A stretch of DNA of 16,184 nucleotides from Bdellovibrionota bacterium FG-2 (lineage in GTDB: Bacteria > Bdellovibrionota > UBA1018): the NCBI GenBank assembly GCA_051382305.1, contig JBBCAV010000118.1, positions 1 through 16,184 of the forward strand, read 5' to 3'. The position numbers were made by a program, and so were the translations under genes. The notes beneath the pieces were generated by a model. It worked only from the letters and a program-made list of their open reading frames with translations. It did not search any database and was not told where the DNA came from. Positions 1 to 16,184 of this stretch are shown in pieces; within the stretch, counting starts at the first letter, position 1, and each line of letters begins with the position of its first letter.

Positions 1-125
1 GAGTGGCTGAATACGTCTTAAAGAATCTTTGGGAAGGTGTCGGCATCCCTGTTCGCAAAATCCTTGCTCGCGGCTATCGAATTAGGGAGATCAGTGAAGA
101 CGGCTTCGTCTTCGTGGCCCCTTAG
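1..125 (+). CDS. 3' end of an unidentified CDS entering the window (possibly a Y1/RAYT-like transposase C-terminus)
   Basis: The frame starting at nt 3 is open and reads VAEYVLKNLWEGVGIPVRKILARGYRIREISEDGFVFVAP, ending at TAG 123-125. 'YVLKN' loosely resembles the YIxxN motif of HUH Y1 transposases, but this product call is weak. Confidence 0.35.
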   Translation, partial: VAEYVLKNLWEGVGIPVRKILARGYRIREISEDGFVFVAP

Positions 126-236
126 GCGCCGGCTCCCGTCCATCCCCCCGTTTTGTTAGGGGGAATTACGCAACAACGCCTAAGCAAGCCCTTAAGTGCT
201 TGAAATTACACAAACAGGGGGTTCGCGATCCACCGT

Positions 237-277
237 TTTGGCTGAAAATCCGCCATTTTGGTGGATTTTGCCGAAAT
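237..277. repeat. Imperfect inverted repeat / stem-loop (possible terminator or element end)
   Basis: Core AAAATCCGCCA-TTT-TGGTGGATTTT at 245-269 pairs at 11 positions with one G:U. It extends through GGC/GCC and flanking T/A runs, and lies between convergent reading frames. Confidence 0.45.
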
Positions 278-499
278 CGAGGAGACGGAGAGGGGTCGGG
301 TGGGACTCGGCAGAGGCCACTTCCATCCTACGGCTGGGGCCGGTCCGTCGGGTGTTATGAACGATTTATTTTAGGCCGCAAACACTCTTCCAGTGATAAA
401 AATGGTTTCTCTGATAAAAAAACTCCAGGATAGCGACGCATGGAAACAATTGCGTATCGAACCGGACAATGGGCACCGGTTTTGCGGTGATAAGGCCAT

Positions 500-880
500 C
501 TATCCCTTCAGTGGAAGCTCAACAATGAAACAAGAGCCCTGGCCGAGTTCACTTTCGACCCGGCTTGAACCGCAGTGTGCTTCAACAATACTGCGTGTAA
601 TAAATAATCCCAGGCCAAAACCACCAAAGGCTTTCGCGGAAACAGCTCTCTCGAAACGTTCAAAGATCCCTTTTTGGTCTTCTATTGCGATCCCAATACC
701 ATGATCACGCACTGAAAGTCGCACTAGACCTTGCTCTTTACGCACAGAAATCTCGATCGGTTTTCCAGCTCCGTATTTCATAGCATTCGTCAGCAGATTT
801 AACACGACCTGCTCGATGCGGACACAATCCCAATTGCCAAGCATTTCAGAAGCGGCTTCAACAGTCGCCGTGCATCCCTT
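500..880 (-). pseudogene. Truncated sensor histidine kinase, HATPase_c domain only
   Basis: N box (EQVVLNLLTNAMKY), G1 (VRDHGIGI), F box (IFERFER) and G2 (GFGLGLFI) are present. The frame continues upstream of the ATG at 844 (KGCTATVEAASE) and then hits TAA at about 881-883. There is no HisKA or sensor domain, and the break coincides with an IS-like end. Confidence 0.8.
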
Positions 881-1054
881 TTAACCCCTGATATTCTCTG
901 GACACCAAAAGCACATAGATCGTGTTAAGAGGTGTGGCATAAACAGGGTACGGAAAAAAAATATAACGAAGAATTCAAAGCGAAGATTCTAAAGGAGGTA
1001 CGAGAAACGAAGAACGCCGCGTTTGCTTCGCTGTGCGACTGGAATAAATTCTGA
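881..1054 (+). mobile_element. Degenerate IS3-family remnant (left IR-like end plus start of OrfA)
   Basis: 881-906 TTAACCCCTGATATTCTCTGGACACC resembles IS3-family IR ends (..CTGGACAC). It is followed by GAGGTG and a short frame 932-1054 containing KKYNEEFKAKILKEVRETKNAA, typical of the HTH_Tnp_1 N-terminus, which then stops early. Confidence 0.6.
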
Positions 1055-1064
1055 TCGGCCAGTG

Positions 1065-2168
1065 TTATTCACGAAGCCGCTGCCAAGCAGAAATCCCCCC
1101 ACTAAGGTGTGCGATAGTGCGAAGGCCCCGCTCCATCAAAATCTCCCCGGCCACCTCGCTTCGCGCACCACTATGACAATAGAGTATCACCCGTGCGCCA
1201 GATGTGAGCTCCGCAGACAACGCCTGGGATTGCCTCAATTGAGACAACGGAATATTCACCGCACCCTCAATATGCCCCGTCTGCCACTCCGCAGCCTCAC
1301 GAACATCAACAAGCAGTACACTACCATCGCGTGCGCCCATGATGCGAGCAAGATCACCCGCAGATAATTCTTCTAAACCTACGACACAGGCTTGGACCTT
1401 TAAATCAGCTAGTACAACCTCTTCCGGTCGGATGGCACATACGGGACACCCCATTACTTTTGGCACGCGAAACATAAAAGGCCCCATAGTTGCGCAATCC
1501 AATACCAATAAAGTGCCGATCAGGGGTTTTAGTGGACCCACATCCGCTCCCTGAATTGCAAGCTTGACCGCCTCCGCAGCTTGCATGCTTCCCACAATTC
1601 CCGCCACTGCCCCCAGAACTCCCGCCTCCGCGCAATTCATCACACGCGTTTCGGGAAGCGCGGGATAGAGACACCGGTAACAAGCGCCGTGCTTGGCCCA
1701 AAAAACAGAGACCTGACCCTCAAAACGTGAAATCGACCCGTACACGACAGGCAATCCCAAGCGAACCGCCGCATCGTTAATCAAGAACTTCGCCGCAAAG
1801 TTATCCGTCCCATCGATGATAATATCAAAGCGAGCGAAAATATCGAGCACGTTGCGCGCGCTCAAACAGCAAGGAAAAGTTTCAATACAAATCTCAGGAT
1901 TCAGTCCCACTAATCTCTTTTTTGCGGCTTCAACTTTAAGTTCTCCCACCTCACAGGTCTGAAACAAAATCTGCCGCTGAAGATTGGTCTCATCGACTCG
2001 ATCAAAATCAACCAAACCTAAAGTACCCACGCCCGCCGCCGCTAGATACAAACTCGCAGGCGACCCCAATCCTCCGACACCCACACAAAGAACGCGCGCT
2101 TTTTTCAGCCGCGCCTGTCCCTCGACACCTATTTCTGGCAGAACGGTCTGCCGTGCATATCGTTTCAT
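1065..2168 (-). CDS. moeB: Molybdopterin-synthase adenylyltransferase MoeB with C-terminal rhodanese domain (MoeZ/MOCS3-like)
   Basis: Motifs RYARQ, GVGGLGS, DFDRVDETNLQRQ, DGTDNF, CYRC and CPVC zinc pairs, and rhodanese DVRE..EW..GHIEGA with active loop CHSGARS. Start placed at ATG 2168, which overlaps the mobA stop (ATGA). Confidence 0.92.
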   Translation of the reverse strand: MKRYARQTVLPEIGVEGQARLKKARVLCVGVGGLGSPASLYLAAAGVGTLGLVDFDRVDETNLQRQILFQTCEVGELKVEAAKKRLVGLNPEICIETFPCCLSARNVLDIFARFDIIIDGTDNFAAKFLINDAAVRLGLPVVYGSISRFEGQVSVFWAKHGACYRCLYPALPETRVMNCAEAGVLGAVAGIVGSMQAAEAVKLAIQGADVGPLKPLIGTLLVLDCATMGPFMFRVPKVMGCPVCAIRPEEVVLADLKVQACVVGLEELSAGDLARIMGARDGSVLLVDVREAAEWQTGHIEGAVNIPLSQLRQSQALSAELTSGARVILYCHSGARSEVAGEILMERGLRTIAHLSGGISAWQRLRE

Positions 2169-2746
2169 TTTATTTTCGCCGCCCATTGTTCCGGGGTATT
2201 GAGATTTACGAATTTTGGCACTTCACTCGGTGCAAGCTCAAAATTTATGGTATTGATTCCTGCAAGCAAAACTCGTATCGAACGAGATCGTCGCTCCGCA
2301 TTTGCATTCACAACTTGGGTAATCGTATCCACAACCTCAACAGAACCTCGCAAGGCCAAAGGGAGTTCATAGTTCGAAAATTTAGCGGCATCGAACCCAC
2401 CCAATCGCTGCCACAGCTCACAAATATGTGCCGGCTCTAACAAAGGCATATCAACAGGTACAACAACCCATAAATTCTCGGGGCTTTTATTCAGCCGCGA
2501 GACTACCGAATGCAAACCACCCAGCGGTCCCAGTTCTGGCACCTCATCCGCAATACACTCGACGCCTTCAATATTTTCGGCAATCTTCCCGCTCACAATT
2601 ACACGGTCTGCGCCGCCGGCTTTGAGCAGAGCAGACATATGATCCACGAGCCTGACTCCACAATAAGACAAGAGCGCCTTGTCGCTACCCATCCGAGTAG
2701 ATCGGCCTCCAGCAAGGAGAATGCCGATAATTTGGCCTTCACCCAT
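2165..2746 (-). CDS. mobA: Molybdenum cofactor guanylyltransferase
   Basis: Motifs LLAGGRSTRMGSDKALL, GPLGGL, PVDMP and NLNTPE. Start placed at ATG 2746, overlapping the moaE stop; ATG 2761 is an alternative. Confidence 0.9.
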   Translation of the reverse strand: MGEGQIIGILLAGGRSTRMGSDKALLSYCGVRLVDHMSALLKAGGADRVIVSGKIAENIEGVECIADEVPELGPLGGLHSVVSRLNKSPENLWVVVPVDMPLLEPAHICELWQRLGGFDAAKFSNYELPLALRGSVEVVDTITQVVNANAERRSRSIRVLLAGINTINFELAPSEVPKFVNLNTPEQWAAKIK

Positions 2747-3188
2747 GCTGACACAACTCATGGCCCTCAAGCCATTCGCTGTCCCCATCTTTATAGTGCT
2801 CTTTCTTCCAAATCGGAGCCCTGACTTTGATTTGCTCAATCAAGTACCGAGAAGCCTGGTATGCCTCATCACGATGGGGTGAACCCACGGCAATGGCGAC
2901 ACTAATCTCGCCCACCGCGAGTCGTCCGACTCGGTGAATAAGTGCAATGCGTTGGGTTTTCCCCCACTTTTCCTGCGCCTCTCGAATCATCGCGACAAAC
3001 ACCCGCTCCGCTAGCAGCTTGTGCACATCGTAAGAAACAGCAACAACAGGTCGTCCAGCATTAAGATCCCTCACAACTCCATAAAAATGGAGCTGCGCCC
3101 CTTGTGCCGGATCCGCGATCAGCTCCCGCATCCGATCCAGAGAAATCGGCTCTTCAACCACGAGTGCTGTAATCCCTTGGAGAGCCAT
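2739..3188 (-). CDS. moaE: Molybdopterin synthase catalytic subunit
   Basis: Motifs GAQLHFYGVVRD, HRVGRLAVGE, SPHRDEAY and KVRAPIWKKE. ATG 3188 is preceded by GGAGGA. Confidence 0.93.
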   Translation of the reverse strand: MALQGITALVVEEPISLDRMRELIADPAQGAQLHFYGVVRDLNAGRPVVAVSYDVHKLLAERVFVAMIREAQEKWGKTQRIALIHRVGRLAVGEISVAIAVGSPHRDEAYQASRYLIEQIKVRAPIWKKEHYKDGDSEWLEGHELCQHG

Positions 3189-3192
3189 GACA

Positions 3193-3456
3193 TCATCCTC
3201 CACACACAGGGGGCAAAACTGAAACGATGCACTTGCCGCTACCCGACTGTTGCAGCAGATCGTAATCGCCTAAAATTCTCGTCTCATCCGCAATCGCCGA
3301 CTTTGCCACCAGATCGCCCGCATTAAGTTTCTCTGTAAGAATCTTTTTGAGATCAATCACGGTCGATTGAGCAGGTATCGTCAAGTTGAGCTGCTGCCCA
3401 TCCGCGAAACTTTTGAATGCGCCAAACAATTTCACTTGCACTTCAATTTGCGTCAT
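3193..3456 (-). CDS. moaD: Molybdopterin synthase sulfur carrier subunit
   Basis: 87 aa ubiquitin-like protein with VKLFG near the N-terminus and C-terminal LPPVCGG. It sits between moeA and moaE and overlaps the upstream stop. Confidence 0.9.
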   Translation of the reverse strand: MTQIEVQVKLFGAFKSFADGQQLNLTIPAQSTVIDLKKILTEKLNAGDLVAKSAIADETRILGDYDLLQQSGSGKCIVSVLPPVCGG

Positions 3457-5870
3457 ACACTAAACCCTCTTGCACGCATTGGCACAACATCGATCAACTC
3501 GCCAGCCGGTAATTCACTCAGTTCTTCGGGTAATATAGCCCAAGCATTGGACACGAGTAACGGACTCACCATAAACGACGCCTGTCCCGGGAGCACCCGC
3601 ACGCTAGCGCTATGGTGTTCCTTGAAATCAAGCCGTGCTTTAAAAAAACAACGAAGGCCCGCAGGCTTTCGCACCTTCTCGCAAAGCTGGGCTCGCAACG
3701 GCTGCTCCGGCGGCAATCCCGTAATCGCCCGCAGATACGGCTCCACAAAAAATCGCAACCCCACGACGGTGGCTACCGGGTTTCCAGGTAGGCCAAACAC
3801 GACAGGACTCTGTGCGCCCAACGTGGGTCCGGGAAGTTTTGCAAAAAGCATAGGTTTTCCTGGCCGAATAGCAGTTTTGTGAAAAACAACTTTTGCGCCT
3901 AAATCTCCCAGCGCCATCGCGATAAAATCATACTTACCCATGGAAACCGCCCCGGTCGTAATAATAACGTCAGGCGATTTTGCCATTTGTTTTTGCATCG
4001 TTTCAATAAACTCATGAGGCTCGTCGGCAAGCGTGCCGCAGAATTCGACTTCAACCCCCAGCGCCGTGAGCGCCGCCACCAAGAAGGGCGCGGTTGAGTT
4101 CCGAATTTGCCCCGTTGTAAGCTCTCGCCCTGTAGAAATCACGGCGACCCGTGGACGCCGACGCACCGGGATTTTGTCGATGCCCAGACTTGCAAGCGCC
4201 AGAATATGCTCAGATTGAAGCATCGCCCCAGCAAAAACAACGGGCGAACCTACGGCAAAATCCTCGCCTGCATCGCGGACATTCTCATGAGGCGCAATGG
4301 GCCGAGACAGCTCAATGGCCATTGCATTGCCCTGCGCATCGCGCTCAACATGAACATCTTCGATACGCACAACAGAATCGCAGCTTTGCGCGGCAGGCAT
4401 CGGTGCACCGGTCATAATTTCCCAAGCACAGCTCCGATCAACGGGGCTTGTTGTAATCGGAGCATCGCCTGCTGCGATCAAGCCCTTCACTAAAAGCCGT
4501 ACAGGATGCTCTGGACTTGCGGAAAATACGGCGCTGCTCATGACGGCAAACCCATCCATCGCGGAGTTATTAAAAGGGGGACTCATCTCCGTACTTTTTA
4601 GGGAGTGGGCACACACTCGGCCCCGAACATCGCTGAGCGTGATTTGCTCTTCAGGCAGCACCCCTTGCTCAACGGCTGCCTCTTGAATCAATTTTAACGC
4701 TTCATCATAACTACAGCTAATCATAAACTCTAACTCCTTTGCTCTTGGCCTAACCCTTGGCACCCCTCGGACGAACCGAGGCAGATCAAAAACTAAGCCG
4801 ATGCCGAGAATCCACAACATGTTCTGTGTAACCAATGCAGTCAGCACCATCGCAATCAGGCGGGGCCTTTCTTCCAAATTATCCCAAGTTTGCCTTGCCA
4901 ATTGCAGGTGAAACACTCCGGTTGCGGCTAAAAGCGCGGCCAACAATGGTGCCCAATACCAAAGTACCGTTCCAGCGCGCAGCCAAACTAGGACACTGAG
5001 TGCCAGCAAAGTGCCGCCCATCACTAGATTTGTTTTCCACGTTTTGGCGCCGCCCCGCACGTGAGCCGTCACACCACCCGAACCATGACAAAAAGGCATC
5101 CCACCCATAACTCCGACTAAGACATTACCCAGGCCAATCGAGAGGAGCAAACGTCTCAGGGTCACTCGTGCGGCGTTAGCCGGAAAATATCGTTGAGTGA
5201 CATCCCTGGTCGCCACGACAGAATTGGCGAGCGTAAGTACAATCTGTGGCATCACAAGTGCCAGAATAAAATCAGGGCGAGCCAGAGCCGTTGCAGAAGT
5301 TAAATGAGCCTCAACGCCCGAGAGAGATGGGGGCAGGGTGAGCATTTTATAAGCGCCAAAGAGCATTCCGCTGGTTGCCAAAAGTCCCATAAAAGGAACA
5401 GCCGTAGCCGCGTTTAATCCCAGAATTGCGCCCGTTAAAGCGAGCGCCACCCAAGGGGCGCCCCAAGCATTTGGCCCAGCCATTTTAGCGGCTTGAAAAA
5501 CAAGAATCACGCCCAAGCCGGCCTGAAGGCCTTGCACCAACGCACGCGGCACCCACGATGCAGCACGGTCCACATTTAAAAAACAAAGAAGGAGACAGAA
5601 AATACCGACAAACGCCCCCGCAAGCCGCACTTCAGCGTAGGAGGCCCCGACGGCGAGCGCGGCGAGCGCGATGGACTTTAGAGGTTGGACCGACATCGGC
5701 ACGCGAAAAAAAATCCCGGCAAAGACATACGCCAACCCTGTCGTTCCAAGAAGAAGCGCGCTCGAAAAACCCGCCCTCAGCGAGAGCGCCACTAAAATAG
5801 GAAAAAGAACGGCACTATCCGCAAACGCGCCGGTAACATCCCCAAGAAGATCCCCGAAAAACTTACGCAT
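3453..5870 (-). CDS. moeA: In-frame fusion: MOT1-family molybdate transporter (N-terminal ~360 aa) plus molybdopterin molybdotransferase MoeA (from Met383)
   Basis: The hydrophobic N-half carries MOT1 motifs GAFADSAVLFP, PMSVQPLKSIA and GMPFCHGSGGVTAH. The C-half carries MoeA motifs PPFNNSAMDGFAV, IMTGAPMP, VAVISTGREL, TTGAVSMGKYD, IRPGKP and FGLPGNPVA. No stop codon separates them. An internal AAGGAG (4734-4739) lies 9 nt before ATG 4724. Confidence 0.85.
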   Translation of the reverse strand: MRKFFGDLLGDVTGAFADSAVLFPILVALSLRAGFSSALLLGTTGLAYVFAGIFFRVPMSVQPLKSIALAALAVGASYAEVRLAGAFVGIFCLLLCFLNVDRAASWVPRALVQGLQAGLGVILVFQAAKMAGPNAWGAPWVALALTGAILGLNAATAVPFMGLLATSGMLFGAYKMLTLPPSLSGVEAHLTSATALARPDFILALVMPQIVLTLANSVVATRDVTQRYFPANAARVTLRRLLLSIGLGNVLVGVMGGMPFCHGSGGVTAHVRGGAKTWKTNLVMGGTLLALSVLVWLRAGTVLWYWAPLLAALLAATGVFHLQLARQTWDNLEERPRLIAMVLTALVTQNMLWILGIGLVFDLPRFVRGVPRVRPRAKELEFMISCSYDEALKLIQEAAVEQGVLPEEQITLSDVRGRVCAHSLKSTEMSPPFNNSAMDGFAVMSSAVFSASPEHPVRLLVKGLIAAGDAPITTSPVDRSCAWEIMTGAPMPAAQSCDSVVRIEDVHVERDAQGNAMAIELSRPIAPHENVRDAGEDFAVGSPVVFAGAMLQSEHILALASLGIDKIPVRRRPRVAVISTGRELTTGQIRNSTAPFLVAALTALGVEVEFCGTLADEPHEFIETMQKQMAKSPDVIITTGAVSMGKYDFIAMALGDLGAKVVFHKTAIRPGKPMLFAKLPGPTLGAQSPVVFGLPGNPVATVVGLRFFVEPYLRAITGLPPEQPLRAQLCEKVRKPAGLRCFFKARLDFKEHHSASVRVLPGQASFMVSPLLVSNAWAILPEELSELPAGELIDVVPMRARGFSV

Positions 5871-5891
5871 AAACTGCTTCCATAAACTACT

Positions 5892-6857
5892 TTAATGACT
5901 CCCGCCCCGCACAATATGAAGCGCATGAGGAATCAATTCATCCAAAGCTTCCAAGCTTTCCAAAACCGCCTTTGGACTCCCTGGGAGCAATAAGACGAGA
6001 GTCCGATCCACCAGTCCTGCCTCACAGCGACTCAACCAAGAACGTTCCGTGAAACGCGAACCATACAGTCGCACGCGCTCTGAAAAACCAGGAATTCGCT
6101 TCGTCCACAAGGACTCGACCGCTTCGGGCGTCACATCTCTTGGCGCAAGGCCCGTCCCGCCCGTCACCACCACCACGCTCAATCCCTCAGTACCCCAAGA
6201 CTTAATCACGTCTTGAATCGCGGTTTTTTCATCAGCGACGATTTTCTGCGCAACATCTGTAGCCCCTCTGACTTTCAAAAACTCTACTGCCGCAGGCCCC
6301 GAGCTATCTTTTGCCTCACCTCGAAAACAACGATCACTCACGGTAAGGACACCCGTACGACATCCTTTGAGTGTCGGTTCTATATCGCCTTCCGACCGCA
6401 ACTGCGGCTTATGATGGGGATGCACCCAAAGTCCTGATTTCCCCCCCTCTTTAATTTCGAGATGAATTTCAGAAATAGTTAACGCCGGATCCACGCCCTT
6501 GGTCAAATCGTAAACACTCAGAAGCGCCGCACTCACGCCAGCAAGCGCTTCCATTTCAACACCCGTTTTTGCAAAAGCGCGCGCCTCGCACGACACGACG
6601 ACTTCACTCCCCACCACCGCGCACGTCACCCAAACCGAATCCAGCCCGAGCGGATGACAAAGCGGGAGCGTTTCCGAGACTCGCTTTGCGCCTTGGATTC
6701 CGGCGACCTCAGCTAACGCAAGCACGTCCCCCTTGGGCATTTCCTTCGCGGCAATTCGAGTCGCCGTTTCAGGGGCCATCCTAATACGTCCACACGCGAC
6801 CGCGCGACGCTTGGTCGGCGTTTTATCACCCACGTCGATCATTCTGAATTCGCTCAT
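5892..6857 (-). CDS. moaC: Bifunctional MoaC (cPMP synthase) / MogA-MoaB (MPT adenylyltransferase)
   Basis: MoaC motifs MIDVGDK, KGDVL, LPLCHPL, TGVEMEAL and GGKSG, then MogA/MoaB motifs LTVSDR, DSSGP, TGGTGLAPRDVTPEA and LPGSPKAV. Start placed at ATG 6857, just after the moaA stop and preceded by GAGG. Confidence 0.93.
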   Translation of the reverse strand: MSEFRMIDVGDKTPTKRRAVACGRIRMAPETATRIAAKEMPKGDVLALAEVAGIQGAKRVSETLPLCHPLGLDSVWVTCAVVGSEVVVSCEARAFAKTGVEMEALAGVSAALLSVYDLTKGVDPALTISEIHLEIKEGGKSGLWVHPHHKPQLRSEGDIEPTLKGCRTGVLTVSDRCFRGEAKDSSGPAAVEFLKVRGATDVAQKIVADEKTAIQDVIKSWGTEGLSVVVVTGGTGLAPRDVTPEAVESLWTKRIPGFSERVRLYGSRFTERSWLSRCEAGLVDRTLVLLLPGSPKAVLESLEALDELIPHALHIVRGGSH

Positions 6858-6861
6858 ACCT

Positions 6862-7881
6862 CTATCCCCCAATTTCCGCGAGGTTCCGCGAATTGCCAGG
6901 ATTTTTCTCATGCAAAAGGTGCGAAGCCGGTTTGTACTTCATTAGATCTAAGATACGGCTCTTGAGTTCCTCTTTTTGCAAAGGACTTTCTAGAAACTCC
7001 CGCAAACTAGCTTCTTCAGATTTTTCGGGGTTTTTCCCTGACTTGGCTCGCGCAAATAAACAGAGGCGCAGCGAGCCTTTTGAAGACACCCGCAACCGAT
7101 TACAAGACTTACAAAAATCCTGGGAGTAAGGCGCGATCACGCCGGCCGTTCCAAGATAATCGGGATGTTCAAAAGTCAAAGCGGGACCTTCATTTTCGCG
7201 CCTCGCTCGCACCCTCCAGCCCCGCTGATAAAGGTTGTTCTGCATTTCAGCCAGAGACATATGCCTGGCTTCAAAAAGTGCTTCGTTATCCGTCGTCTGC
7301 ATCAACTCAATCCAACGCACATGAATCGGCGTCCGCTTAGCCCAATCCAAATAGCGCTCGACTTCAAAATCGTTCAAGCCCTTCATCAAAACGACGTTCA
7401 CTTTGACTGATTCAAACCCCGCCTGAAGCGCCCCTTCGACCCCCGCAACAACTTCATCAAAACGTGAACTTCCCGTAAGGGCTTGAAACCCAGCCGCATT
7501 GAGTGAATCCAGACTCACATTCAAACTCGAAACTCCCGCTTTTTTAAGGGGCAGCGCAAGTTCCTTCAAGCGATAGCCATTCGTCGTCAGTCCCACAGTG
7601 CGAATGCCCGGCACTGTGGCTACGGCTTGCGCAATTTCGACAATATCCTTGCGCACGGTAGGTTCGCCGCCGGTGAGTCGGATTTTTTTAACTCCGAGCT
7701 GTGCAAAGCCACTCACCAAATTGGAGATTTCAGAAACACGGAGAGCCGAACAACCCGAAGGGTTACTCGGAACACTACCATTAGGGAGACAATAGACACA
7801 ACGAAAGTTACAAGTGTCAGTAACTGAAAGTCTGAGATAAGAAAACGTTCTTCCGAACGTATCACGCACTAATGAGGCCAA
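6862..7881 (-). CDS. moaA: GTP 3',8-cyclase (radical SAM)
   Basis: Motifs YLRLSVTDTCNFRCVYC (CxxxCxxC), LTGGEPTVR, FCKSCNRLR..LRLCLF and C-terminal IGG. TTG start with GGAG RBS. Confidence 0.96.
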   Translation of the reverse strand: MASLVRDTFGRTFSYLRLSVTDTCNFRCVYCLPNGSVPSNPSGCSALRVSEISNLVSGFAQLGVKKIRLTGGEPTVRKDIVEIAQAVATVPGIRTVGLTTNGYRLKELALPLKKAGVSSLNVSLDSLNAAGFQALTGSSRFDEVVAGVEGALQAGFESVKVNVVLMKGLNDFEVERYLDWAKRTPIHVRWIELMQTTDNEALFEARHMSLAEMQNNLYQRGWRVRARRENEGPALTFEHPDYLGTAGVIAPYSQDFCKSCNRLRVSSKGSLRLCLFARAKSGKNPEKSEEASLREFLESPLQKEELKSRILDLMKYKPASHLLHEKNPGNSRNLAEIGG

Positions 7882-7885
7882 AACT

Positions 7886-8026
7886 GTCTCCTTTCCAAGT
7901 AATAGGAGGCAAGATCGTTTCCGTTATCTTGCCCCGGTGGGCATTATGCCCACGGCCAAAATCCCGTATTTTCCAACAGAGCTCACAACTACGACGGAAA
8001 ACTTAGACATTTTGGCTCGGAGTTAT
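7886..8026 (-). ncRNA. Molybdenum cofactor (Moco) riboswitch
   Basis: The minus strand reads AACTCCGAGCCAAAATGTCTAAG...TACGGGATTTTGGCCGTGGGCATAATGCCCACCGGGGCAAGATAACGGAAACGATCTTGCCTCCTATTACTTGGAAAGGAGA. This follows the moaA-leader architecture: P1 CTCC/GGAG, P2 GCCAAAAT/ATTTTGGC, P3 GTGGGCA/TGCCCAC, P4 GGCAAGAT/ATCTTGCC with GGAAA, and a TTGGAAAGGAG tail containing the RBS. It lies directly upstream of moaA. Confidence 0.92.
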
Positions 8027-8034
8027 TTGTGAAG

Positions 8035-9645
8035 CTACACCGAAACCGGTACCTCCGCAATCTCGGTTTTTGAATCTTTTTTTCTAATCATCGATTCAAG
8101 CGATTGAACTACGTCTCCCAGGTCCTCAGCTTGATGCCGAAGCTTTTTAGCTGATGCAGCCAGCTCACCTGAAATTTTTGAGTTACTATGGGTTGCGCCA
8201 TCCAATTCTGTCATGGCTTTGGAAATTTCACTCACTCCTTGCGCCTGCTCATGACTTGCGGAAGAAATCTCCTGTACCATCTGATTGACCGCTTGTGTTC
8301 CCGAAAGAATCTTATCCAATACAGCTTCAGACTCACGGGCCGTCCTTAGGCCTAAATCAACTTTCAGCTTAACCCCCTCCATGAGCTGCCTAATTCGAGT
8401 ATTGCTCTCCTCTACGATAGCCTTCACCTTCCCTGTGCTGACAGTTAAGAGTGAATCAATCTCGCGAGCAGCATCACCACTGCTCTTAGCTAAGTTTCCA
8501 ACCTCTTCGGCCACCACTGAAAACCCCTTGCCCTGCTCACCAGCCCGCGCCGCCTCAACCGATGCATTAAAAGATAAAAGTTTTGTTTGAAATACAATAT
8601 CATTTATTACTTTTGTCTTATCCCCGATCTCAGCAATCATTTTGACAATCTCACTAATTCGAGTGTTGCTCAGTTCGATCTCATCCGTCATTTTCTTGTT
8701 GCTGTCGTGGATCTCTTCGATCGCCCGCATCATCCCCTGCATCACCATCTTTCCCTGAGTGACCGCTGCACTACTTTCACTAGAACTCGTCGCAGAGCGA
8801 GCAGCGTTATCAGCACTCTTGGAGACCATCGCATTGAGTTCCTCCACCGACGCCGTAGTCTCTTGCACTGCTGCCGCCTGCTGCGAAGAAGTTGCTGCCA
8901 ACTTTGTTGAGACAGAATACACCCCATCCGCTTCTGATTTTGTCTGCGCGGTTTCGCGAGCAAGATGCTCAACGACCTCCTCCAAGGCAGTTAATATCGC
9001 ACGCCCCAATCTCATGCTCAATAAAACGCCCAAAACAGCGCCTAAAATAACCGAGGTCAACATCAAAACGCTACTCAAACTATTAATGAGGGAGAGCTTT
9101 TCGGCAGCAGTTGCAAGATCTTGCGAAAGCATATCGGTTGCTTCATCTAAGGCCTTCCCGGCTGTGGCATAATTTGGCAAGCAGTTACCTATGAACTCTG
9201 CAATCGCAGCCTTAGGATCAACCTTAATGAGAGACCGAATGTTCTTTTCCAGCGGGAGAACTGTCTCGTGCATTTCTAATACGGTCTTAAATCGTGTCAT
9301 TAATTCGTCAGAAGGTTTAAGCGTATCGATTTGCACCATTAAGTTATCGAGATTTGCATCGGCCTTGATTTTTTCTGCCCACAAAGCAGTCCGCGAAGGA
9401 TCATGCAGGAAGGTCGTAATGGCAAGCTGGCCCGAATTGAACGTAAGCTTAACGGCACCAAAAACTTCCCTGATCGCAACAACGTTTTGGTAATGTGTTT
9501 GAACTCTCCGCGAAACCGCGTTTGAAACAAGGTAGATCGCGATGGATATCACACCCACCGCGATCAATGCGTTTCGAAGAAAGCTAATTCTCTGCGGGAT
9601 TGAAACTATTTTAGCCTCTGCTTGATGCTCGACCATCCGGTTCAC
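8035..9645 (-). CDS. Methyl-accepting chemotaxis protein (two TM helices, periplasmic helical sensor domain)
   Basis: Two hydrophobic segments ([32 protein letters not shown]) and the signalling hairpin [40 protein letters not shown]. Start uncertain (GTG 9645 or ATG 9636). Confidence 0.93.
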
Positions 9646-9657
9646 CCATTCTTAAAT

Positions 9658-9688
9658 TCCCCAGGGCCAAACGCTAGGCCCAGGGGAT
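9658..9688 (-). other. Intergenic stem-loop between the PstS-like gene and the MCP gene
   Basis: Minus strand TCCCCTGGGCC-TAGCGTTT-GGCCCTGGGA. It has no clear U tract, so it may be an mRNA stabiliser or a weak terminator. Confidence 0.35.
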
Positions 9689-9700
9689 CAAATACTCTAA

Positions 9701-10480
9701 CTATTTAGCAGGGACAAACTTCTTACCAACGATCGCCTGACCTTCTGGCGAAAGAATAAAGTCAAAAAATTTCTTCGCATCGCCGGTAGGCGCCTCTTTA
9801 GATACGAGAACTAAAGGGCGTGAAAGAAGATATTCACCGGATTTGACATTATCCGAAGTGGGATCAACACCATTAACACCGATCATCTTGCCACCCACGC
9901 TCTTAAAAGACGATGATGCGTAAGTGATTACGCTCGAGTCCTTAGCTGCTTCACCAACGCAATCATGAGGCTTGTCGACTTGTCTTGACGGTCCATATGC
10001 CTCCTTATCCATCGCCATTTCCTTAAATTCTTTGACCGTGGCGCGATCCCCAGTTTGAAGCTCTGTCACAACCGTGATGGGCCCCGCTTTTCCGCCGACA
10101 TCCTTCCAGTTCGCAATTTTACCTGTAAAAATCTTTTTAATTTGATCTTTTGTAAGCGCTTTAACCGGATTTGAAGCATGCACAAACACAGCAATCGCAT
10201 CGTAACCAATATTTTGATAATAAGGCTTAGCCGCTTTTTCTTCTGTCTTTAACGCCCTACTCAACCCTCCGATATTCGCTGCCCCCGCCATCACTGCCTT
10301 AATTCCCTCTCCCGAGCCTTTTAATCCGATGCTATCAAATTTAATCTTTTCCTTTGCCTCAAAAGCCGTACTTGCCTCTGGCATAACATTCTCACCAATT
10401 GTCGATGAGCCTTCATAAGTGAGTCCTGCCCACGCCATCGTTGTACACAAAAAGACTGCCAAAACTAACACCTGCTTCAT
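9701..10480 (-). CDS. PstS-like (PBP2) periplasmic oxyanion-binding protein, orphan
   Basis: Sec signal MKQVLVLAVFLCTTMAWA, and motifs GSSTI, GSGEGI, SRALK, GYDAIAVFVHASNPV, IFTGKIANWKDVGG, Y.LSRPL and FFDFILSPEGQ. ATG 10480 is preceded by AAGGAGG. No pstCAB in the window. Confidence 0.88.
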   Translation of the reverse strand: MKQVLVLAVFLCTTMAWAGLTYEGSSTIGENVMPEASTAFEAKEKIKFDSIGLKGSGEGIKAVMAGAANIGGLSRALKTEEKAAKPYYQNIGYDAIAVFVHASNPVKALTKDQIKKIFTGKIANWKDVGGKAGPITVVTELQTGDRATVKEFKEMAMDKEAYGPSRQVDKPHDCVGEAAKDSSVITYASSSFKSVGGKMIGVNGVDPTSDNVKSGEYLLSRPLVLVSKEAPTGDAKKFFDFILSPEGQAIVGKKFVPAK

Positions 10481-10537
10481 AACACGTCCTCCTTGGTTAA
10501 ATATAGCGAACACATTTCAAAAAAACCTATACTAATA

Positions 10538-10789
10538 TTACGTCTGCGAAACTTCTAAAGTTTTCTCCACTTGCGGAGCATTAATCTGCTGAACCGACAG
10601 GACGGTTTCGGCGCGCGCTTCGCGCGTATCATCACTCATAAGAGACGAGATACCTTTGCCGTCTACCGCTTCCTTAAAAGCCTTAAATCCCTTACCGAGT
10701 CCCGCTCCAAGCTCCGGCAACCGCCTGGAACCAAAAAGCAACACCACGATCCCCAAAACCAATAAATGCCCTGCACTTAAACCAAACAT
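10538..10789 (-). CDS. tatA: Twin-arginine translocase TatA/TatE subunit
   Basis: MFGLSAGHLLVLGIVVLLFGSRRLPELGAGLGKGFKAFK matches the TatA pattern. ATG 10789 is preceded by AAGGAGG. Confidence 0.9.
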   Translation of the reverse strand: MFGLSAGHLLVLGIVVLLFGSRRLPELGAGLGKGFKAFKEAVDGKGISSLMSDDTREARAETVLSVQQINAPQVEKTLEVSQT

Positions 10790-10810
10790 AAAACCTCCTT
10801 CAAAATTAGA

Positions 10811-10851
10811 ACTGCCCCAGCCCATTAGTACAAATAGCAGGCCAGGGCAGT
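10811..10851 (-). other. Intergenic stem-loop downstream of the catalytic-subunit gene
   Basis: Minus strand ACTGCCCTGGCCT...GGGCTGGGGCAGT forms about 13 bp including G:U pairs, with no poly-U tail. Confidence 0.45.
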
Positions 10852-10875
10852 CGGTAGAGGTAGAAGCCTACATGA

Positions 10876-13425
10876 TTAGACCTTTACCAACTTTACGCAG
10901 GTCTCTTTATGAAGAGCCTGCCCAGAAAGTGGATCAGATTTGGTGGGCCGCAAGGTTGCATCAGAGGTTCCTCTGCCCATCGCATTTTTCCCAAGAGCCG
11001 TGTGACCAAAGCCATGCTGCAACCCCACAACTTCAGGGTGAATACGTTTCGACACCTTCACCTTGGCTTTCACCTTCCCATATTTGGATTCAACCCAAAC
11101 TTCGTCCCCCGATTTAATCTTCATACTCGCTGCGGCCTTGGGATGCATGATCAGTGGGTTATCTGCCTTAATTTCTAAAAGCCAGGGATTGTTCTGAGTC
11201 CTGCTATGAGTGTGGCTCGCTTCCTTCCAGTTGATCGCATAAAAGGGATACTCAGCAGACGGCATCCAATCACGAGAGTTAAACACGGGCAGCGCATCCA
11301 CAGGACGTCCGAGAGCATCTTTTTTATCAGCTAGGCCCTTAGCAAAAAACTCAACTTTACCACTCTTTGTGAAAAAGCCACGCACAGGTTTTCCTGCAAT
11401 GAGAGTTCCAATTCGCTTGCCGCCTTTGTCTTTGGGCTTATCATAAATCCCGGTCCCATCGACCTTACGATCACCGTCAAACCAAGCTGATTTCAGCTTA
11501 TCATCAGCAAGTACGCTCTTGTACTTCTCATACTTCGTGCCTTTCTTATCAATCCATACCGCTCCCGGTAGTTTTTTGAGTTCCGCCAACGTCATTGCGG
11601 GTCCGCCACTCTTACATTCATTTGAGAGATAATCTTCGTACCAGGTTTTGAGATCATCAATTGTCTTGCCCGAAAGCGGTCCAACATTGAAAAATAGTTT
11701 TCCCTCGTGATCTTTAAGCTTCAGTCTTCGCCCCAAAGCCGCCACCACCTCATATTCAGCCAGTTGACCAAAGAGGGGCTTTACTACGGGCTGTCTGAGA
11801 GCCATGCACCCCCAGGTCACCCAGTGAGTGTTGAGATCGTATCGTTCCAGGTACGTCGTCCCAGGAAGCACATAATCCGCCAGCTTGGCCGTCTCGCTCA
11901 TCATAGTATCGATCACAACGAAAGTTTCCAACTTCGCAATTGCCTTGGCAACGGTTCCCGAGCCAGGCACCGACATCATTGGGTTTTGAAAAACGCACAT
12001 CATCATTTTGGGCTTATACGGGCCCTTATCGTCAGCGAGATTTTGAAACATCTGGGTATAGACGCCAGAAGAATGTCCTAGTGGATACTTCTTCGCTTCG
12101 TCAAAAGTCGGCAGTTTTACCGACTTCGCCGCCTTCTCATCGGGATCACAATGTCCGTGCTTGTTCCCCTTTTTATCCGGCATAATCAACGTCCCAGGCC
12201 GATCGTATCCACCCACGAGCGCCGCAAGCATCGCAATCGCGCGCCCTCCTTGCACACCATTACTGTGCTGTCCGGGCCCACTCCAAACATCAACGCAAGG
12301 CGCTTTTGCTTTCGCAAGTTCCTTAGCTAGACGTTCAATGGTTTTTGCAGGAATCGTCGTGATTTTCTCCGCCCACTGAGGGGTCTTGTCTTTAACGTAT
12401 TCGGCATACTCCTTGAAGCCCACCGTCCATTGCTCCACAAACTCTTTATGGTAAAGCTTATCGCGAACAATCACATGCCCCATCGCAAGAGCTAAGGCGC
12501 CATCTGTGGCAGGACGTACTGAAACCCACTCATGAGCTTTCACGGCTGTATCCGACATATACGGATCCACGACAACCAAACGCGCGCCTTTTTCCAGCGC
12601 ACGAGTCATCATGCGTGGCAAATGCACCCATTTGATCGCACTAGTGGGATTCCAGCCAAAGAGCATGATAAAGTCCGATTGAAGCATATCTGCAAGCGGA
12701 CGGTCATCGCCCATCACAGCCTTATACGATGCCTTGCGAGCGACGTCACAAAGGTTCGAGTGCATAACGTAGTTTGGCGTTCCATATAATGTACAAAAGT
12801 CACCCTGAACATGAGTAAATGAATGATCCTCACTCATCCAAATGAGTTTTTGGGCTTCATCGGCATCCCGCAACGCACGCATCTTCTCTGCGATCTCATC
12901 AAGCGCACGCTCCCAAGTGATCTCCTCCCATTTTGGATCCGCTCCCGGCGTTTTATCGGGGTTGGTCCGCTTCAAAGGCTTCTTGACTCGCTCAGGGTCA
13001 TAAAGTTGCATAATCCCTGCGTTTCCTTTGGGACAAAGCGCTCCGCCCTCTTTACAGCCATATGCTTCTGTATATCCGTCAAAAAAATCAGTTGAGATAT
13101 TGGAGTAGTTATTGGGGTTCCAGTGATTAGGTTCGATCTTTTCAACGACGCCATCAACGACATGGACCAGGATACCGGATTGCCCTCCACACATATTACA
13201 GCACGAAGGAATCCATTCGCCCGCCTCACGGCCCCAACGTTTTTTCCCTTCGGCATTAGCGATAATTTGTTGATCGCGAATTACCGGGGTTCCTGTTTTC
13301 TTAGCACCCTTTTTTCCTGTTTTCGCATGAGCCTTAAGCCCAAGCCCCACGACCCCTACTGCAGCCGCAGTTCCTGCGTCCCTAATAAATTTACGACGCC
13401 CCATTTTTTTATCAAAAATATACAT
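10876..13425 (-). CDS. Tat-exported Mo/W-bisPGD oxidoreductase catalytic subunit (DMSO reductase family, Psr/Phs/Srr/Arr/Anr-like)
   Basis: Tat signal GRRKFI..AHA; FS0 region CCNMCGGQS...LCPKG; YDPERVKKPLKRTNP; GTPN..HSNLC (Cys226, predicted Mo ligand); VVVDP; RPATDGALALAM; ADYVLPGTTYLER; HTHSRTQNN; C-terminal dinucleotide-binding domain. RBS AGAGGT. Confidence 0.93.
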   Translation of the reverse strand: MYIFDKKMGRRKFIRDAGTAAAVGVVGLGLKAHAKTGKKGAKKTGTPVIRDQQIIANAEGKKRWGREAGEWIPSCCNMCGGQSGILVHVVDGVVEKIEPNHWNPNNYSNISTDFFDGYTEAYGCKEGGALCPKGNAGIMQLYDPERVKKPLKRTNPDKTPGADPKWEEITWERALDEIAEKMRALRDADEAQKLIWMSEDHSFTHVQGDFCTLYGTPNYVMHSNLCDVARKASYKAVMGDDRPLADMLQSDFIMLFGWNPTSAIKWVHLPRMMTRALEKGARLVVVDPYMSDTAVKAHEWVSVRPATDGALALAMGHVIVRDKLYHKEFVEQWTVGFKEYAEYVKDKTPQWAEKITTIPAKTIERLAKELAKAKAPCVDVWSGPGQHSNGVQGGRAIAMLAALVGGYDRPGTLIMPDKKGNKHGHCDPDEKAAKSVKLPTFDEAKKYPLGHSSGVYTQMFQNLADDKGPYKPKMMMCVFQNPMMSVPGSGTVAKAIAKLETFVVIDTMMSETAKLADYVLPGTTYLERYDLNTHWVTWGCMALRQPVVKPLFGQLAEYEVVAALGRRLKLKDHEGKLFFNVGPLSGKTIDDLKTWYEDYLSNECKSGGPAMTLAELKKLPGAVWIDKKGTKYEKYKSVLADDKLKSAWFDGDRKVDGTGIYDKPKDKGGKRIGTLIAGKPVRGFFTKSGKVEFFAKGLADKKDALGRPVDALPVFNSRDWMPSAEYPFYAINWKEASHTHSRTQNNPWLLEIKADNPLIMHPKAAASMKIKSGDEVWVESKYGKVKAKVKVSKRIHPEVVGLQHGFGHTALGKNAMGRGTSDATLRPTKSDPLSGQALHKETCVKLVKV

Positions 13426-13440
13426 AAATAACCTCTTTTC

Positions 13441-14316
13441 TTAGACCAAGTAATACACATTCGGCAGTGTCTGAAGCTCTTCTTTTAAGCGGATCGCCTT
13501 GTGCTTTTTCAGCAACTGAGAAACCTCACTCTTGGGATCATTAAAGTCCCCAAAGAAAATGGCGTGCCCCGTACACGTTTTTGAACAGGCAGGCCATCGT
13601 CCTGCCGATTTGTCGTAACGTCCGTCTTGATCTTGAAGATGCACACAAAATGTGCATTTTCGAACTTTGCCTGTCGTCATTTTATCGCCTTCGCGCGGCC
13701 TAAACTGATTATATTCAGGCGAAGGAACCTGTGAATAGGGGGTTTTCCCTTCTACAGCTGGATAATTGTTTCCATCATCAATTGTACGCGCTCCGTAAGG
13801 ACAAGCTTTGACACAATCTCCAGCCCCTTGACAAAGATCATAATCCACAACGACAACGCCATCACTTGCCCGCTTAAAGGTCGCATCAACTGGGCAAACG
13901 GGAACGCACGGAGGGTTCTCACAATGAAAACATGGCCGAGTCATGAAAATGGGCTTATCAACCACACTCTTTTTGTCCGGATTTTCCAAGAGGACGTTAT
14001 TAAAGACTCCGGGAGGTGTTTTATTTTCCGCCTTACAAGCAACCACACAAGCCTTGCAGCCCACGCATCGTTTCGTATCCACTACCATTCCAAAACGATA
14101 TTTTCGCTTAGCCTTAGTCTCAGCATTCACGGCCGGGGCAGCGCCAGCAATTGAGGCCACTAATCCTCCCCCCAATGCGAGCGCTAATGCTCCTGCCCCC
14201 GTCTTTACGATCTGTGAAACGAGGTCTCTTCGACTCATCTCTCCATCAAGCGATGAATCTTTGTCCTTATTTTTTTCTTCATTGTTATCGATATTTACCT
14301 TACCTGAATCAGTCAT
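13441..14316 (-). CDS. Four-cluster Fe-S electron-transfer subunit (NrfC/PsrB/DmsB-like) with its own Tat signal
   Basis: SRRDLV followed by a hydrophobic h-region; Cys groups CVGCKACVVAC, CFHCENPPCVPVCP, CQGAGDCVKACP and CTFC..PACSKTC; C-terminal PNVYYL. ATG 14316 is preceded by GGGAGG. Confidence 0.92.
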   Translation of the reverse strand: MTDSGKVNIDNNEEKNKDKDSSLDGEMSRRDLVSQIVKTGAGALALALGGGLVASIAGAAPAVNAETKAKRKYRFGMVVDTKRCVGCKACVVACKAENKTPPGVFNNVLLENPDKKSVVDKPIFMTRPCFHCENPPCVPVCPVDATFKRASDGVVVVDYDLCQGAGDCVKACPYGARTIDDGNNYPAVEGKTPYSQVPSPEYNQFRPREGDKMTTGKVRKCTFCVHLQDQDGRYDKSAGRWPACSKTCTGHAIFFGDFNDPKSEVSQLLKKHKAIRLKEELQTLPNVYYLV

Positions 14317-14318
14317 GA

Positions 14319-14389
14319 GATCCTCCCAAAATTTCGGGAGATCCAATCAAACAGCCCCAAAATCCCCAGCCATTTGAATGGATCTCCCG
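14319..14389 (-). promoter_or_regulatory. Mutually exclusive RNA hairpins overlapping the RBS of the Fe-S subunit gene
   Basis: Long stem CGGGAGATCCA/TGGATCTCCCG plus TCAAATGGC/GCTGTTTGA (14335-14389). The alternative stem GATCTCCCGAA/TTTGGGAGGATC (14319-14343) pairs the Shine-Dalgarno. Confidence 0.5.
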
Positions 14390-14402
14390 CTAAAATCTAT
14401 GT

Positions 14403-15419
14403 CTAGAATGTCCAAGAAAACGTAATTCGTGGAATCACGTCAGCATCAGTACCTTCAGGGTAAGTCACCATTTCAACGTTCGGCATAAAATGGATGTTTT
14501 TAGCAGCCTCATAATCCACACCCGCAATATAGAGCATGGGCTTCGCCGTCTTGCTTTGATGCAAATAGGTCGAATCTCCGAGGCAAGCCTTATCAAGAGC
14601 ATCAACCCGCGCAAAAGCAGAAAGTTCATCCATGACTTTGGCAACAGCATGGAGTGACCAAACGTTATAAGAATTAAAAAGATTTTTTGAGGCAGCGACT
14701 TTTCGATGAGCAAACATCGCACCCACGCGGAAAGCATCCACTTTATAGCCTGCGAAAACGTGATTCAGAGTCGAGTGAGTATTGGATTCATAATCACCAT
14801 ATACCTCAAGGAGAACCTCTTTAATCGGAGCTGACGTAAGCGAGAGGTAAACTCTCTTGCCCTTGTTGATTTCCTGAGTCGTGCTACTGCCATTGGCGGC
14901 CATAACATGATAGCCTAGGAGACCATCACTATAACTCCCCTTGATAGCGACCCCTAAATCTCTCGAAGGGGCTAATCCCCACAAATCTTCTGGCGACTTC
15001 TCAACAGCTCTTAGACCCCAGTGATTTTCGACGACATCAAGAGTAGGCGTCCCCGCGAGGCCCATGAACACTTTACGCGAATCCCATTTATACTGAAGAT
15101 ACAGATCTTTTAGAAAAGGGGAAATCGTGGAACCCGTCTTATCGGTAAAGTCTTTTCCATTCATTTCAAAACGCAAACGTGAAGACCAATTTTCTTCAAA
15201 GCCATAGTCATAAGTAAAATAAGCTCTTCTCAACCAAAAACCATTTTGCCCCTGATAACCCTTCTCACTAGCAAGCGAAGTCGTTGTGTCATGATCCTTT
15301 GCAAACCAGTACGCATCCCCAAACACTAAACCAGAAAACTTCCCCTCGCCCGCAAACGCCGAACCAGAAACCAGCACAATAAAGGCCAGTAATCCTAAAA
15401 CGTGCTTATAATTTTTCAC
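14403..15419 (-). CDS. Outer-membrane beta-barrel porin, OprO/OprP (anion-selective)-like
   Basis: Signal peptide ending AFA, FWLRRAYF motif, alternating beta-strand pattern, and C-terminal BAM signal RITFSWTF. GTG start after GGAGA. Confidence 0.75.
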   Translation of the reverse strand: MKNYKHVLGLLAFIVLVSGSAFAGEGKFSGLVFGDAYWFAKDHDTTTSLASEKGYQGQNGFWLRRAYFTYDYGFEENWSSRLRFEMNGKDFTDKTGSTISPFLKDLYLQYKWDSRKVFMGLAGTPTLDVVENHWGLRAVEKSPEDLWGLAPSRDLGVAIKGSYSDGLLGYHVMAANGSSTTQEINKGKRVYLSLTSAPIKEVLLEVYGDYESNTHSTLNHVFAGYKVDAFRVGAMFAHRKVAASKNLFNSYNVWSLHAVAKVMDELSAFARVDALDKACLGDSTYLHQSKTAKPMLYIAGVDYEAAKNIHFMPNVEMVTYPEGTDADVIPRITFSWTF

Positions 15420-15514
15420 TCATTTTCTCCTTTTACAGTTATTTGATCAGAAGAACACAAAGGCTCTCCTGCCCCCGTTGACTCAAACACTTCGAATAGG
15501 TGTGCAAAAAGGAT

Positions 15515-15556
15515 TATGACGAAAACGACTTCTTTTACTAGTCCGTAAAACTACGT
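15515..15556 (-). promoter_or_regulatory. Candidate promoter / regulator-binding region for the porin-oxidoreductase operon
   Basis: Inverted repeat TTTTAC-N6-GTAAAA (15533-15550) and a CATAAT -10-like hexamer on the minus strand, with only a poor -35. Confidence 0.3.
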
Positions 15557-16162: not shown

Positions 16163-16184
16163 TTAGACGTGCTCCCCTCGGAGG

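Follow-up and report, generated by a model that had tools for sequence, protein, structure and literature searches.

Does the single open reading frame (ORF) of 805 codons that runs through positions 3453..5870 on the minus strand of a contig of Bdellovibrionota bacterium FG-2 stand for a true fusion of a MOT1-family molybdate permease with the molybdenum insertase MoeA, and if it does, how did the two genes come to be joined? The frame lies in contig JBBCAV010000118.1 of assembly GCA_051382305.1, of which positions 1 to 16,184 were analysed (hereafter the window). We favour, with a probability of about 0.58, the explanation that the join is real, recent and specific to this lineage, and that it was produced by one extra base in an operon that is led by a molybdenum cofactor (Moco) riboswitch and that normally carries the two genes as an overlapping pair. 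The join looks recent, not like an established architecture, and the conserved gene pair behind it is a more solid result than the fusion.

The ORF is open from ATG to stop under table 11 (805 residues; 812 from stop to stop). All domains that Pfam detects in it score above their gathering thresholds: two stretches of MFS_MOT1 (PF16983, at about residues 12-123 and 203-319, 104.7 bits for a cut-off of 30), then MoeA_N (residues 387-563, 123.1 bits for 30.8), MoCF_biosynth (residues 576-714, 115.0 bits for 26.6) and MoeA_C (residues 726-797, 32.1 bits for 22.1). The permease part comprises residues 1-382 (4725..5870) and the MoeA part residues 383-805 plus the stop (3453..4724), the latter with an ATG of its own; between them, neither a stop nor a frame change was found. 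The Pfam and ORF results agree with an earlier interpretation made from the DNA letters alone (the sequence-only reading), according to which one 805-residue frame joins a MOT1-family domain to a complete MoeA, and they place it on the minus strand. Programmed frameshifting and a different genetic code were also considered as explanations of the ORF and dropped, the frame being plainly open under the standard bacterial table.

The two parts are joined by PRFVRGVPRVRPRAKELEF (residues 364-382, 4725..4781), which had been described as a basic linker. Its sequence was given correctly, whereas its role was not: the stretch is the native C-terminal tail of the permease, within which the ribosome site of moeA is written. 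M383, the first residue of the MoeA part, comes right after it; its codon is the ATG at 4724-4722, and AAGGAG stands upstream at 4739-4734 with a spacer of 9 bases. To judge from these elements, the ribosome-binding site for a separate moeA is intact. The other two reading frames each meet a TAG at most 40 bases before this ATG. The junction also retains the letters ATGA, and the permease frame is a single base off register with the TGA they contain; with one T less in the TTT codon at 4727-4725, just before the moeA ATG, the ATGA overlap is restored. The 805-residue join is one base away from the usual ATGA-overlapping gene pair, and the simplest event that could have put the permease frame in register with moeA is the insertion of a T into this TTT. 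Codon usage is uninformative on this point, as the log-likelihoods of the 61-base tail in its three frames, computed with the codon tables of the window's genes, lie only a few log units apart.

What is usual for this pair can be read from relatives. At the loci of seven related genomes (L005-L011) and at a second locus of the FG-2 assembly itself (L020), a MOT1-like gene and moeA are immediate neighbours on one strand, with moeA second and never in the frame of the permease gene. We then considered the 80 best MOT1-like loci of a species-representative genome collection in which at least 557 exist. In 19 of the 80, moeA is directly downstream; these are nearly all the loci at 39% identity or more, together with one locus from Chitinophagales, and they include two that are 99.96% identical (L028 and L029) and six that are the same records as in the L005-L011 set. 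Besides FG-2 itself, 42 of 401 sampled genomes of the phylum have a MOT1-like gene (called at E <= 1e-20; ModA was called above its cut-off): read from the coordinates, moeA is directly downstream in 23 of them and on the same contig within about 3 kb in 33. The commonest permease/moeA junction is the four-base ATGA stop/start overlap, found in 13 of the 23 that were scored automatically; these 13 represent nine distinct loci once L006=L027, L010=L037 and L011=L050 are merged and L028/L029 are counted once. Read by eye, the junction of L005 (=L024) is ATGA too, and the remaining ones are overlaps of 8-38 bases or small gaps. The permease tails of relatives have a length similar to that of the window's "linker" and end in a stop; in L011, as in the window, the permease frame translates AAGGAG as Lys-Glu, and 8 bases rather than the window's 9 separate it from the ATG. 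Two separate genes in all close relatives had been named by the sequence-only reading as an outcome that would speak against it, and the relatives are indeed unfused, which bears out part of that outcome.

A separate observation concerns a Chitinophagales bin (L087, 1174-3456), where the stop codon of a distant MOT1-like gene (29% identity) is TAA and the ATG of moeA comes next, in frame. On this sequence, a single stop-codon change would also give a MOT1-MoeA fusion.

With one base deciding between one gene and two, the quality of the DNA is central. The assembly, a bin, is fragmented into 433 contigs, with a completeness of 85% and a contamination of 4.4%, and the depth at the locus is only about 8. 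A spurious base introduced by sequencing, assembly or consensus calling in the last 60 or so bases of the permease gene, the truth being two genes with an ATGA overlap, would account for several of the features described above: one base is enough, the two alternative frames both end no more than 40 bases before the moeA ATG, moeA retains a full ribosome site and start, and the fusion is unique among the collections searched. We consider such an error unlikely, while taking it seriously. The Logan k-mer assembly of a sequencing run that holds all sampled words of the 3453..5870 stretch (run X1) contains a contig of 6060 bases, at a word depth of 8.22, that covers the whole stretch with 0 differences and 0 gaps over 2418 bases. 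The T run is just three long and no usual error hotspot, and the 12 other long ORFs of the window that were submitted to Pfam show no broken frame, 11 of them matching the expected families. The sequence-only reading had asked whether reads across the junction would reveal an indel or a stop, and the contig of run X1 has neither. Because this contig shows the same junction, the DNA of the permease-MoeA join is probably genuine. A second run (X2), a groundwater metagenome from a different study, contains near-identical short pieces at 4334-4484 and 4494-4675 (0 and 3 differences) and a poor piece at 5635-5671, which indicates that the same or a very close strain is present elsewhere.

If the join is real, has it been kept for a purpose? 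A second fused form was searched for widely. The whole protein was compared by word index with 5.8 billion protein clusters (length range 442-1409 residues). The best 120 of 941 matches are the protein itself and MoeA-type proteins of 442-591 residues without a MOT1 domain; the permease part alone gave seven matches there, none of them another fusion and six of them MOT1-only proteins of 443-492 residues. When the whole protein was compared exhaustively with 1.84 billion cluster representatives by HMMER, no other fusion appeared among the best 150 of 24,434 matches. These 150 extend down to 274 bits and, the protein itself aside, are all MoeA-only (312-458 residues) or MOT1-only (374-381 residues); a relative that is fused, even one only 30-40% identical in each half, would be expected to exceed that score. 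No fused permease-MoeA occurs among the 80 MOT1-like genome loci, nor in the other 42 MOT1-like-carrying genomes of the 401, where the frames that contain full-length matches measure 367-540 residues from stop to stop. A profile search for longer proteins (862-2460 residues), made with an alignment of 23 prokaryotic permeases (A2), found none, which is weak evidence; a protein atlas searched with the whole 805-residue protein gave no usable match; and a scan of metagenome contigs with the whole protein, which missed the contig of the closest MoeA, returned only three MoeA loci at 36-46% identity, with no MOT1-like gene in their flanks.

These searches bear on the proposal of the sequence-only reading that the ORF is a Rosetta-stone fusion. 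The parts do occur elsewhere as separate, linked genes, as such a fusion supposes; the fused architecture itself does not recur among the best matches of the cluster and HMMER searches, in the 80 loci or in the 401 genomes, and we do not retain it as an established architecture. An adaptive fusion of this kind, selected for channelling molybdate from the permease to MoeA, is in our view quite improbable. It has attractive sides. MoeA is a homodimer. SLC26-type permeases, to which the permease part is compared below, are dimeric as well (SLC26Dg dimer structure 8zzv), and the predicted topology, a cytoplasmic C-terminus with a flexible tail, would suit a tethered enzyme (PMC9147641). The conserved translational coupling could be read as a need for matched amounts, and other fusions exist in the pathway, such as moaC-moaB in the window and MoeA-MoaD in P0006, a relative described below. 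Against it, no second case was found at any evolutionary distance searched, with no sign of retention by selection, and the junction has no adapted linker, its sequence being the native tail with the ribosome site left unaltered.

The permease part, by its Pfam match, belongs to the MOT1 family (PF16983), and it keeps 24 of 24 invariant columns of alignment A2. Hydropathy gave an unclear helix count, so that the count was taken from an AlphaFold2 model (mean predicted local distance difference test score, pLDDT, 90.7; predicted template modelling score, pTM, 0.89). The model has 14 helices arranged as 7+7, helices 3 and 10 containing short strands. V61-Q62-P63-x-K65 and G257-x-P259-x-C261-H262-G263, both invariant in the 23 prokaryotic sequences, lie at these two strands. 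These two motifs may correspond to the published signature motifs of eukaryotic MOT1. By structure, the best Foldseek matches are to SLC26Dg (5da0/5iof, E 3e-10), followed by SLC26A3, AtSULTR4;1, BicA and UraA, with a probability of 1.00 and a TM score of about 0.67 for the top matches (SLC26Dg, SLC26A3, SULTR4;1 and BicA). By sequence, no MOT1-family structure was found in the PDB, where the permease profile reaches only SLC26Dg (5iof, E 8e-4). The Pfam scan of the 805-residue ORF found no STAS family. The model indicates that the permease has an SLC26/SulP fold without a STAS domain.

In the model, residue 368 closes the last helix and pLDDT is under 60 from about residue 371 onwards, so the tail is predicted to be a flexible basic tether of some 14-19 residues. 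In plants, both termini of MOT1.1 and MOT1.2 are cytosolic by split-GFP (PMC9147641). Because of these cytosolic termini, and because STAS follows helix 14 in the cytoplasm in SLC26/SulP proteins, a MoeA fused at the C-terminus of the permease would be expected to sit in the cytoplasm. The comparison with SLC26/SulP proteins (SLC26Dg 5da0, SLC26A3, AtSULTR4;1 7lhv and BicA) is one of fold, with the same 7+7 helices and a cytoplasmic domain after helix 14; unlike these proteins, which end in STAS, the window permease lacks STAS and has an enzyme, MoeA, in that place, and the likeness in sequence is as marginal as the 5iof match above. The predicted product would then be a 14-helix permease of SLC26 fold carrying MoeA on the tail that follows its last helix, at the position where SLC26/SulP proteins carry STAS.

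Over its full length, the MoeA part matches E. coli MoeA (1fc5) with an E-value of 3e-40 (residues 24-418) and the E domains of Cnx1 and gephyrin with E-values of about 1e-39. It keeps 31 of 31 invariant columns of an alignment of 30 sequences (A3). Its closest relative (P0002, 64% identity) is a separate protein of 442 residues that starts at a methionine homologous to M383. With the AAGGAG and the ATG retained, the window's gene could still yield free MoeA beside the membrane-tethered form. A complex prediction for the permease and MoeA, made with alignments A2 and A3, returned a score of 0.00; run without controls, it is evidence neither for nor against a contact.

Several features of MoeA relatives deserve mention in their own right. 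Five of them (P0002-P0005 and P0007) carry a C-terminal extension of about 20-35 residues that ends in Cys-Cys or in Cys-Cys plus one residue; as a guess, this could be a tail that handles metal or sulfur. The window MoeA has no such extension and ends just before moaD. P0006, of 503 residues, runs on into a MoaD-like domain with a Gly-Gly end, and here again overlapping Moco neighbours stand in one frame. Another genome, which lacks a MOT1-like gene, has a MoeA_N match within an open frame of 718 residues (G264:C37:2857-3345), which may be a different MoeA fusion or merely a long stop-free stretch.

The ORF is part of an operon of minus-strand genes, with overlaps or very short gaps between them. 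It begins with moaA (GTP 3',8-cyclase, 6862..7881), identified by Radical_SAM and Mob_synth_C domains and by TIGR02666 (321 bits, cut-off 284), and continues with a fused moaC-moaB gene (5892..6911), which has MoaC and MoCF_biosynth domains and matches the bifunctional MoaC/MoaB model NF002947 (339.5 bits, cut-off 285). The 805-residue ORF comes next, followed by moaD (3193..3456), a weak TIGR01682 match (E 4e-4) below the cut-off whose position is conserved in relatives; the moeA stop and the moaD ATG again overlap as ATGA. The operon ends with moaE (2739..3203; PF02391, 111 bits), a mobA-like guanylyltransferase gene (2165..2839; NTP_transf_3, with MobA NCBIfam matches below their cut-offs) and a gene for a moeB/moeZ-type adenylyltransferase with a rhodanese domain (1065..2186; ThiF and Rhodanese, with MoeB/MoeZ matches below their cut-offs). 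Directly 5' of moaA and abutting its start is a Moco riboswitch aptamer (7872..8034, minus strand), which matches Rfam RF01055 over the full model (1-135) with 74.9 bits for a gathering score of 36 and an E-value of 7e-17.

This layout is shared. Of the 15 MOT1-moeA loci of relatives that were tested, 14 have RF01055 upstream of moaA, and it was not found in L037, L087, L047 or the second locus of the FG-2 genome (L106). Going by the locus labels, the order moaA, moaC-moaB, MOT1-like gene, moeA, (moaD), moaE, mobA recurs in Oligoflexia, Bdellovibrio, Pseudobdellovibrionaceae, Bacteriovoracaceae and some Pseudomonadota bins. The riboswitch-led layout of the Moco operon is robustly conserved across Bdellovibrionota. 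More widely, 39 of the 80 MOT1-like loci, from several phyla, are accompanied by one or more Moco-biosynthesis genes at a distance of up to about 3 kb, and five more have only a molybdopterin-oxidoreductase-like gene nearby.

The distribution of the MOT1-like gene in the phylum is complementary to that of ModA. MOT1-like genes occur in 43 of the 401 genomes and ModA in 26, with no genome holding both; MoeA_N was found in 101; of the 43 genomes with a MOT1-like gene 42 have it, and of the 26 with ModA 24. The largest family of the sample has ModA only, and many of the genomes are incomplete. In the FG-2 genome (85% complete), no ModA match was found. Independently of the fusion, a functional link between the permease and MoeA is well supported: the two genes are conserved neighbours, they share a riboswitch-led operon, and the MOT1-like gene and ModA have complementary distributions. 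The operon, the Moco genes in the flanks and the exclusion of ModA also give indirect support to high-affinity molybdate transport, and the permease would import molybdate, possibly tungstate, in place of ModABC.

FG-2 itself has a second Moco operon, with the order moaA, X, moeA, moaD, moaE, mobA (contig C153, about 32262-33460; L106 8275-9429; L020 1453-2655). X is an ORF of 400 residues in which MoaC and a truncated MoaB are followed, in frame, by the second half of a MOT1-like protein (residues ~206-363); from its sequence, it looks like the remnant of an in-frame deletion. A genome of the same genus (G001) carries an operon of this type, at about 75% DNA identity, without a permease gene, and it carries ModA.

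Could the frameshift, although real, mark decay, tolerated thanks to the second moeA while the lineage loses its MOT1-type gene? The C153 operon, left with only the C-terminal half of a MOT1-like gene in frame with a truncated moaC-moaB, invites the thought, as does the relative G001, which has the operon without the permease gene and ModA instead. We nevertheless hold this to be the least probable of the explanations weighed here. Both halves of the window ORF keep all their invariant residues and full-length domain matches, the shift touches at most a poorly conserved tail, and, with no ModA match in its genome, the permease would be the only recognised molybdate importer of FG-2.

The recent one-base join in an otherwise conventional operon is the explanation that we retain, and a number of results weigh against it. 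The fusion is a singleton in all collections searched and nothing shows selection for the fused form; since it is unique and rests on one base, it is on its own weak evidence. Run X1 is possibly the source sample of the window, so that the Logan contig would be an independent assembly and not independent DNA. The pieces of run X2 end at 4675, short of the junction, which leaves one contig of depth 8 as the read-level support, and among the sequencing runs found to hold the stretch no RNA run is listed. A second MoeA gene is present in the same assembly, on contig C153, and the fused copy need not be functional. The MoeA part falls below the NCBIfam equivalog cut-offs (260.2 bits for 440 with PRK10680 MoeA, 261.0 for 475 with Glp), and by these thresholds the protein, which its domains place in the MoeA family, would be assignable to neither equivalog. 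In the literature examined, no bacterial member of the MOT1 family is shown to transport molybdate. As for the distribution, 35 of the 101 MoeA-carrying genomes have neither a MOT1-like gene nor ModA, and a further uptake route for molybdate or tungstate, of Wtp or Tup type or unknown, is therefore likely in the phylum. The exclusivity of MOT1 and ModA partly tracks family boundaries, related genomes not being independent, and a first, smaller sample included a genome (G007) with a distant MOT1-like gene and ModA together.

How the pair might work is suggested by plants. Bimolecular fluorescence complementation (BiFC) indicates that MOT1.1 and MOT1.2 interact with Cnx1, and that MOT1.2 does so with the E domain, the MoeA homologue (PMC9147641). 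This precedent, to which the sequence-only reading had appealed, holds in the same source. The plant and bacterial pairs are alike in combining a PF16983 permease with a partner that is MoeA or its homologue, the Cnx1 E domain; they differ in that the plant partners are two separate proteins in contact by BiFC, whereas here we have bacterial overlapping genes and one single-frame contig, known from sequence. Because contact with Cnx1 is reported for both plant transporters (PMC9147641), a permease-MoeA contact in bacteria is plausible by analogy. In the overlapping arrangement, translational coupling would make the permease and MoeA in matched amounts, and the permease may hand its molybdate to a nearby MoeA, in the way described for plant MOT1 with the E domain of Cnx1; in FG-2, a fused protein of 805 residues may be made and may work. 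The idea that molybdate is channelled straight into cofactor insertion thus survives as far as a functional link is concerned, and direct channelling is an inference that goes beyond it.

Other known systems offer partial parallels. ModABC with a soluble MoeA, as in E. coli, has the same role in the pathway, the import of molybdate for MoeA, through a class of transporter unrelated to MOT1, and the ModABC genes are known targets of the Moco riboswitch (PMC2408646). MoaC-MoaB, MobB-MoeA (NF011060), MoeA-MoaD and the eukaryotic Cnx1 and gephyrin, with their G and E domains, likewise bring pathway neighbours into one frame; these fusions are recurrent and have family models of their own, whereas the permease-MoeA join was found once.

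Bacterial molybdate uptake is taught as the work of ModABC, WtpABC or TupABC. In two large, recent comparative papers, MOT1 is given as eukaryotic only (PMC6147048, Table 3; PMC13144720, Discussion). Bacterial PF16983 proteins have been seen before, "SulP-family molybdate transporters" having been noticed in sulfate reducers (PMC5840216). In the portion of the literature covered, we found no description of a MOT1-MoeA fusion or of a bacterial operon in which MOT1 and moeA stand together or overlap, and none of MOT1-type genes controlled by a riboswitch or of mutual exclusion between MOT1 and ModA. In Bdellovibrionota, a MOT1-family permease gene is built into a riboswitch-controlled cofactor operon, where it would be translationally coupled to the insertase and replace ModA. 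This would provide a simple bacterial system for the hand-over of molybdate from a MOT1-type permease to the insertase, so far approached only by BiFC in plants, and the single fused frame, if real, would be a ready-made construct for that question. A broader generalisation is possible, and we offer it tentatively: prokaryotic MOT1-family permeases may be the main molybdate importers in many bacteria without ModABC, among them much of Bdellovibrionota and scattered members of further phyla, under riboswitch control and touching MoeA; the plant MOT1-Cnx1E pair may be inherited from such a bacterial pair; and the fusion may indicate that a tethered pair is viable. If true, this generalisation would overturn the view of the two comparative papers that MOT1 is confined to eukaryotes.

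The remainder of the window, upstream of the Moco operon on the same strand, contains a group of genes at 10876-16162 that encode a PhsA/PsrA-like molybdopterin oxidoreductase of 849 residues, with Arg-Arg-Lys-Phe near its N-terminus, a DsrO/TtrB-like 4Fe-4S subunit, a weakly porin-like protein and a LuxR-type response regulator; no membrane subunit of NrfD/PsrC type was seen in the window. The oxidoreductase is probably a molybdoenzyme served by the Moco operon. Between these genes and the riboswitch (8035-10513, minus strand) lie genes for a methyl-accepting chemotaxis protein and for a periplasmic binding protein of the PstS family, the latter scoring below the family cut-off and having no ABC permease or ATPase gene beside it. 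These two proteins could be an oxyanion-sensing pair.

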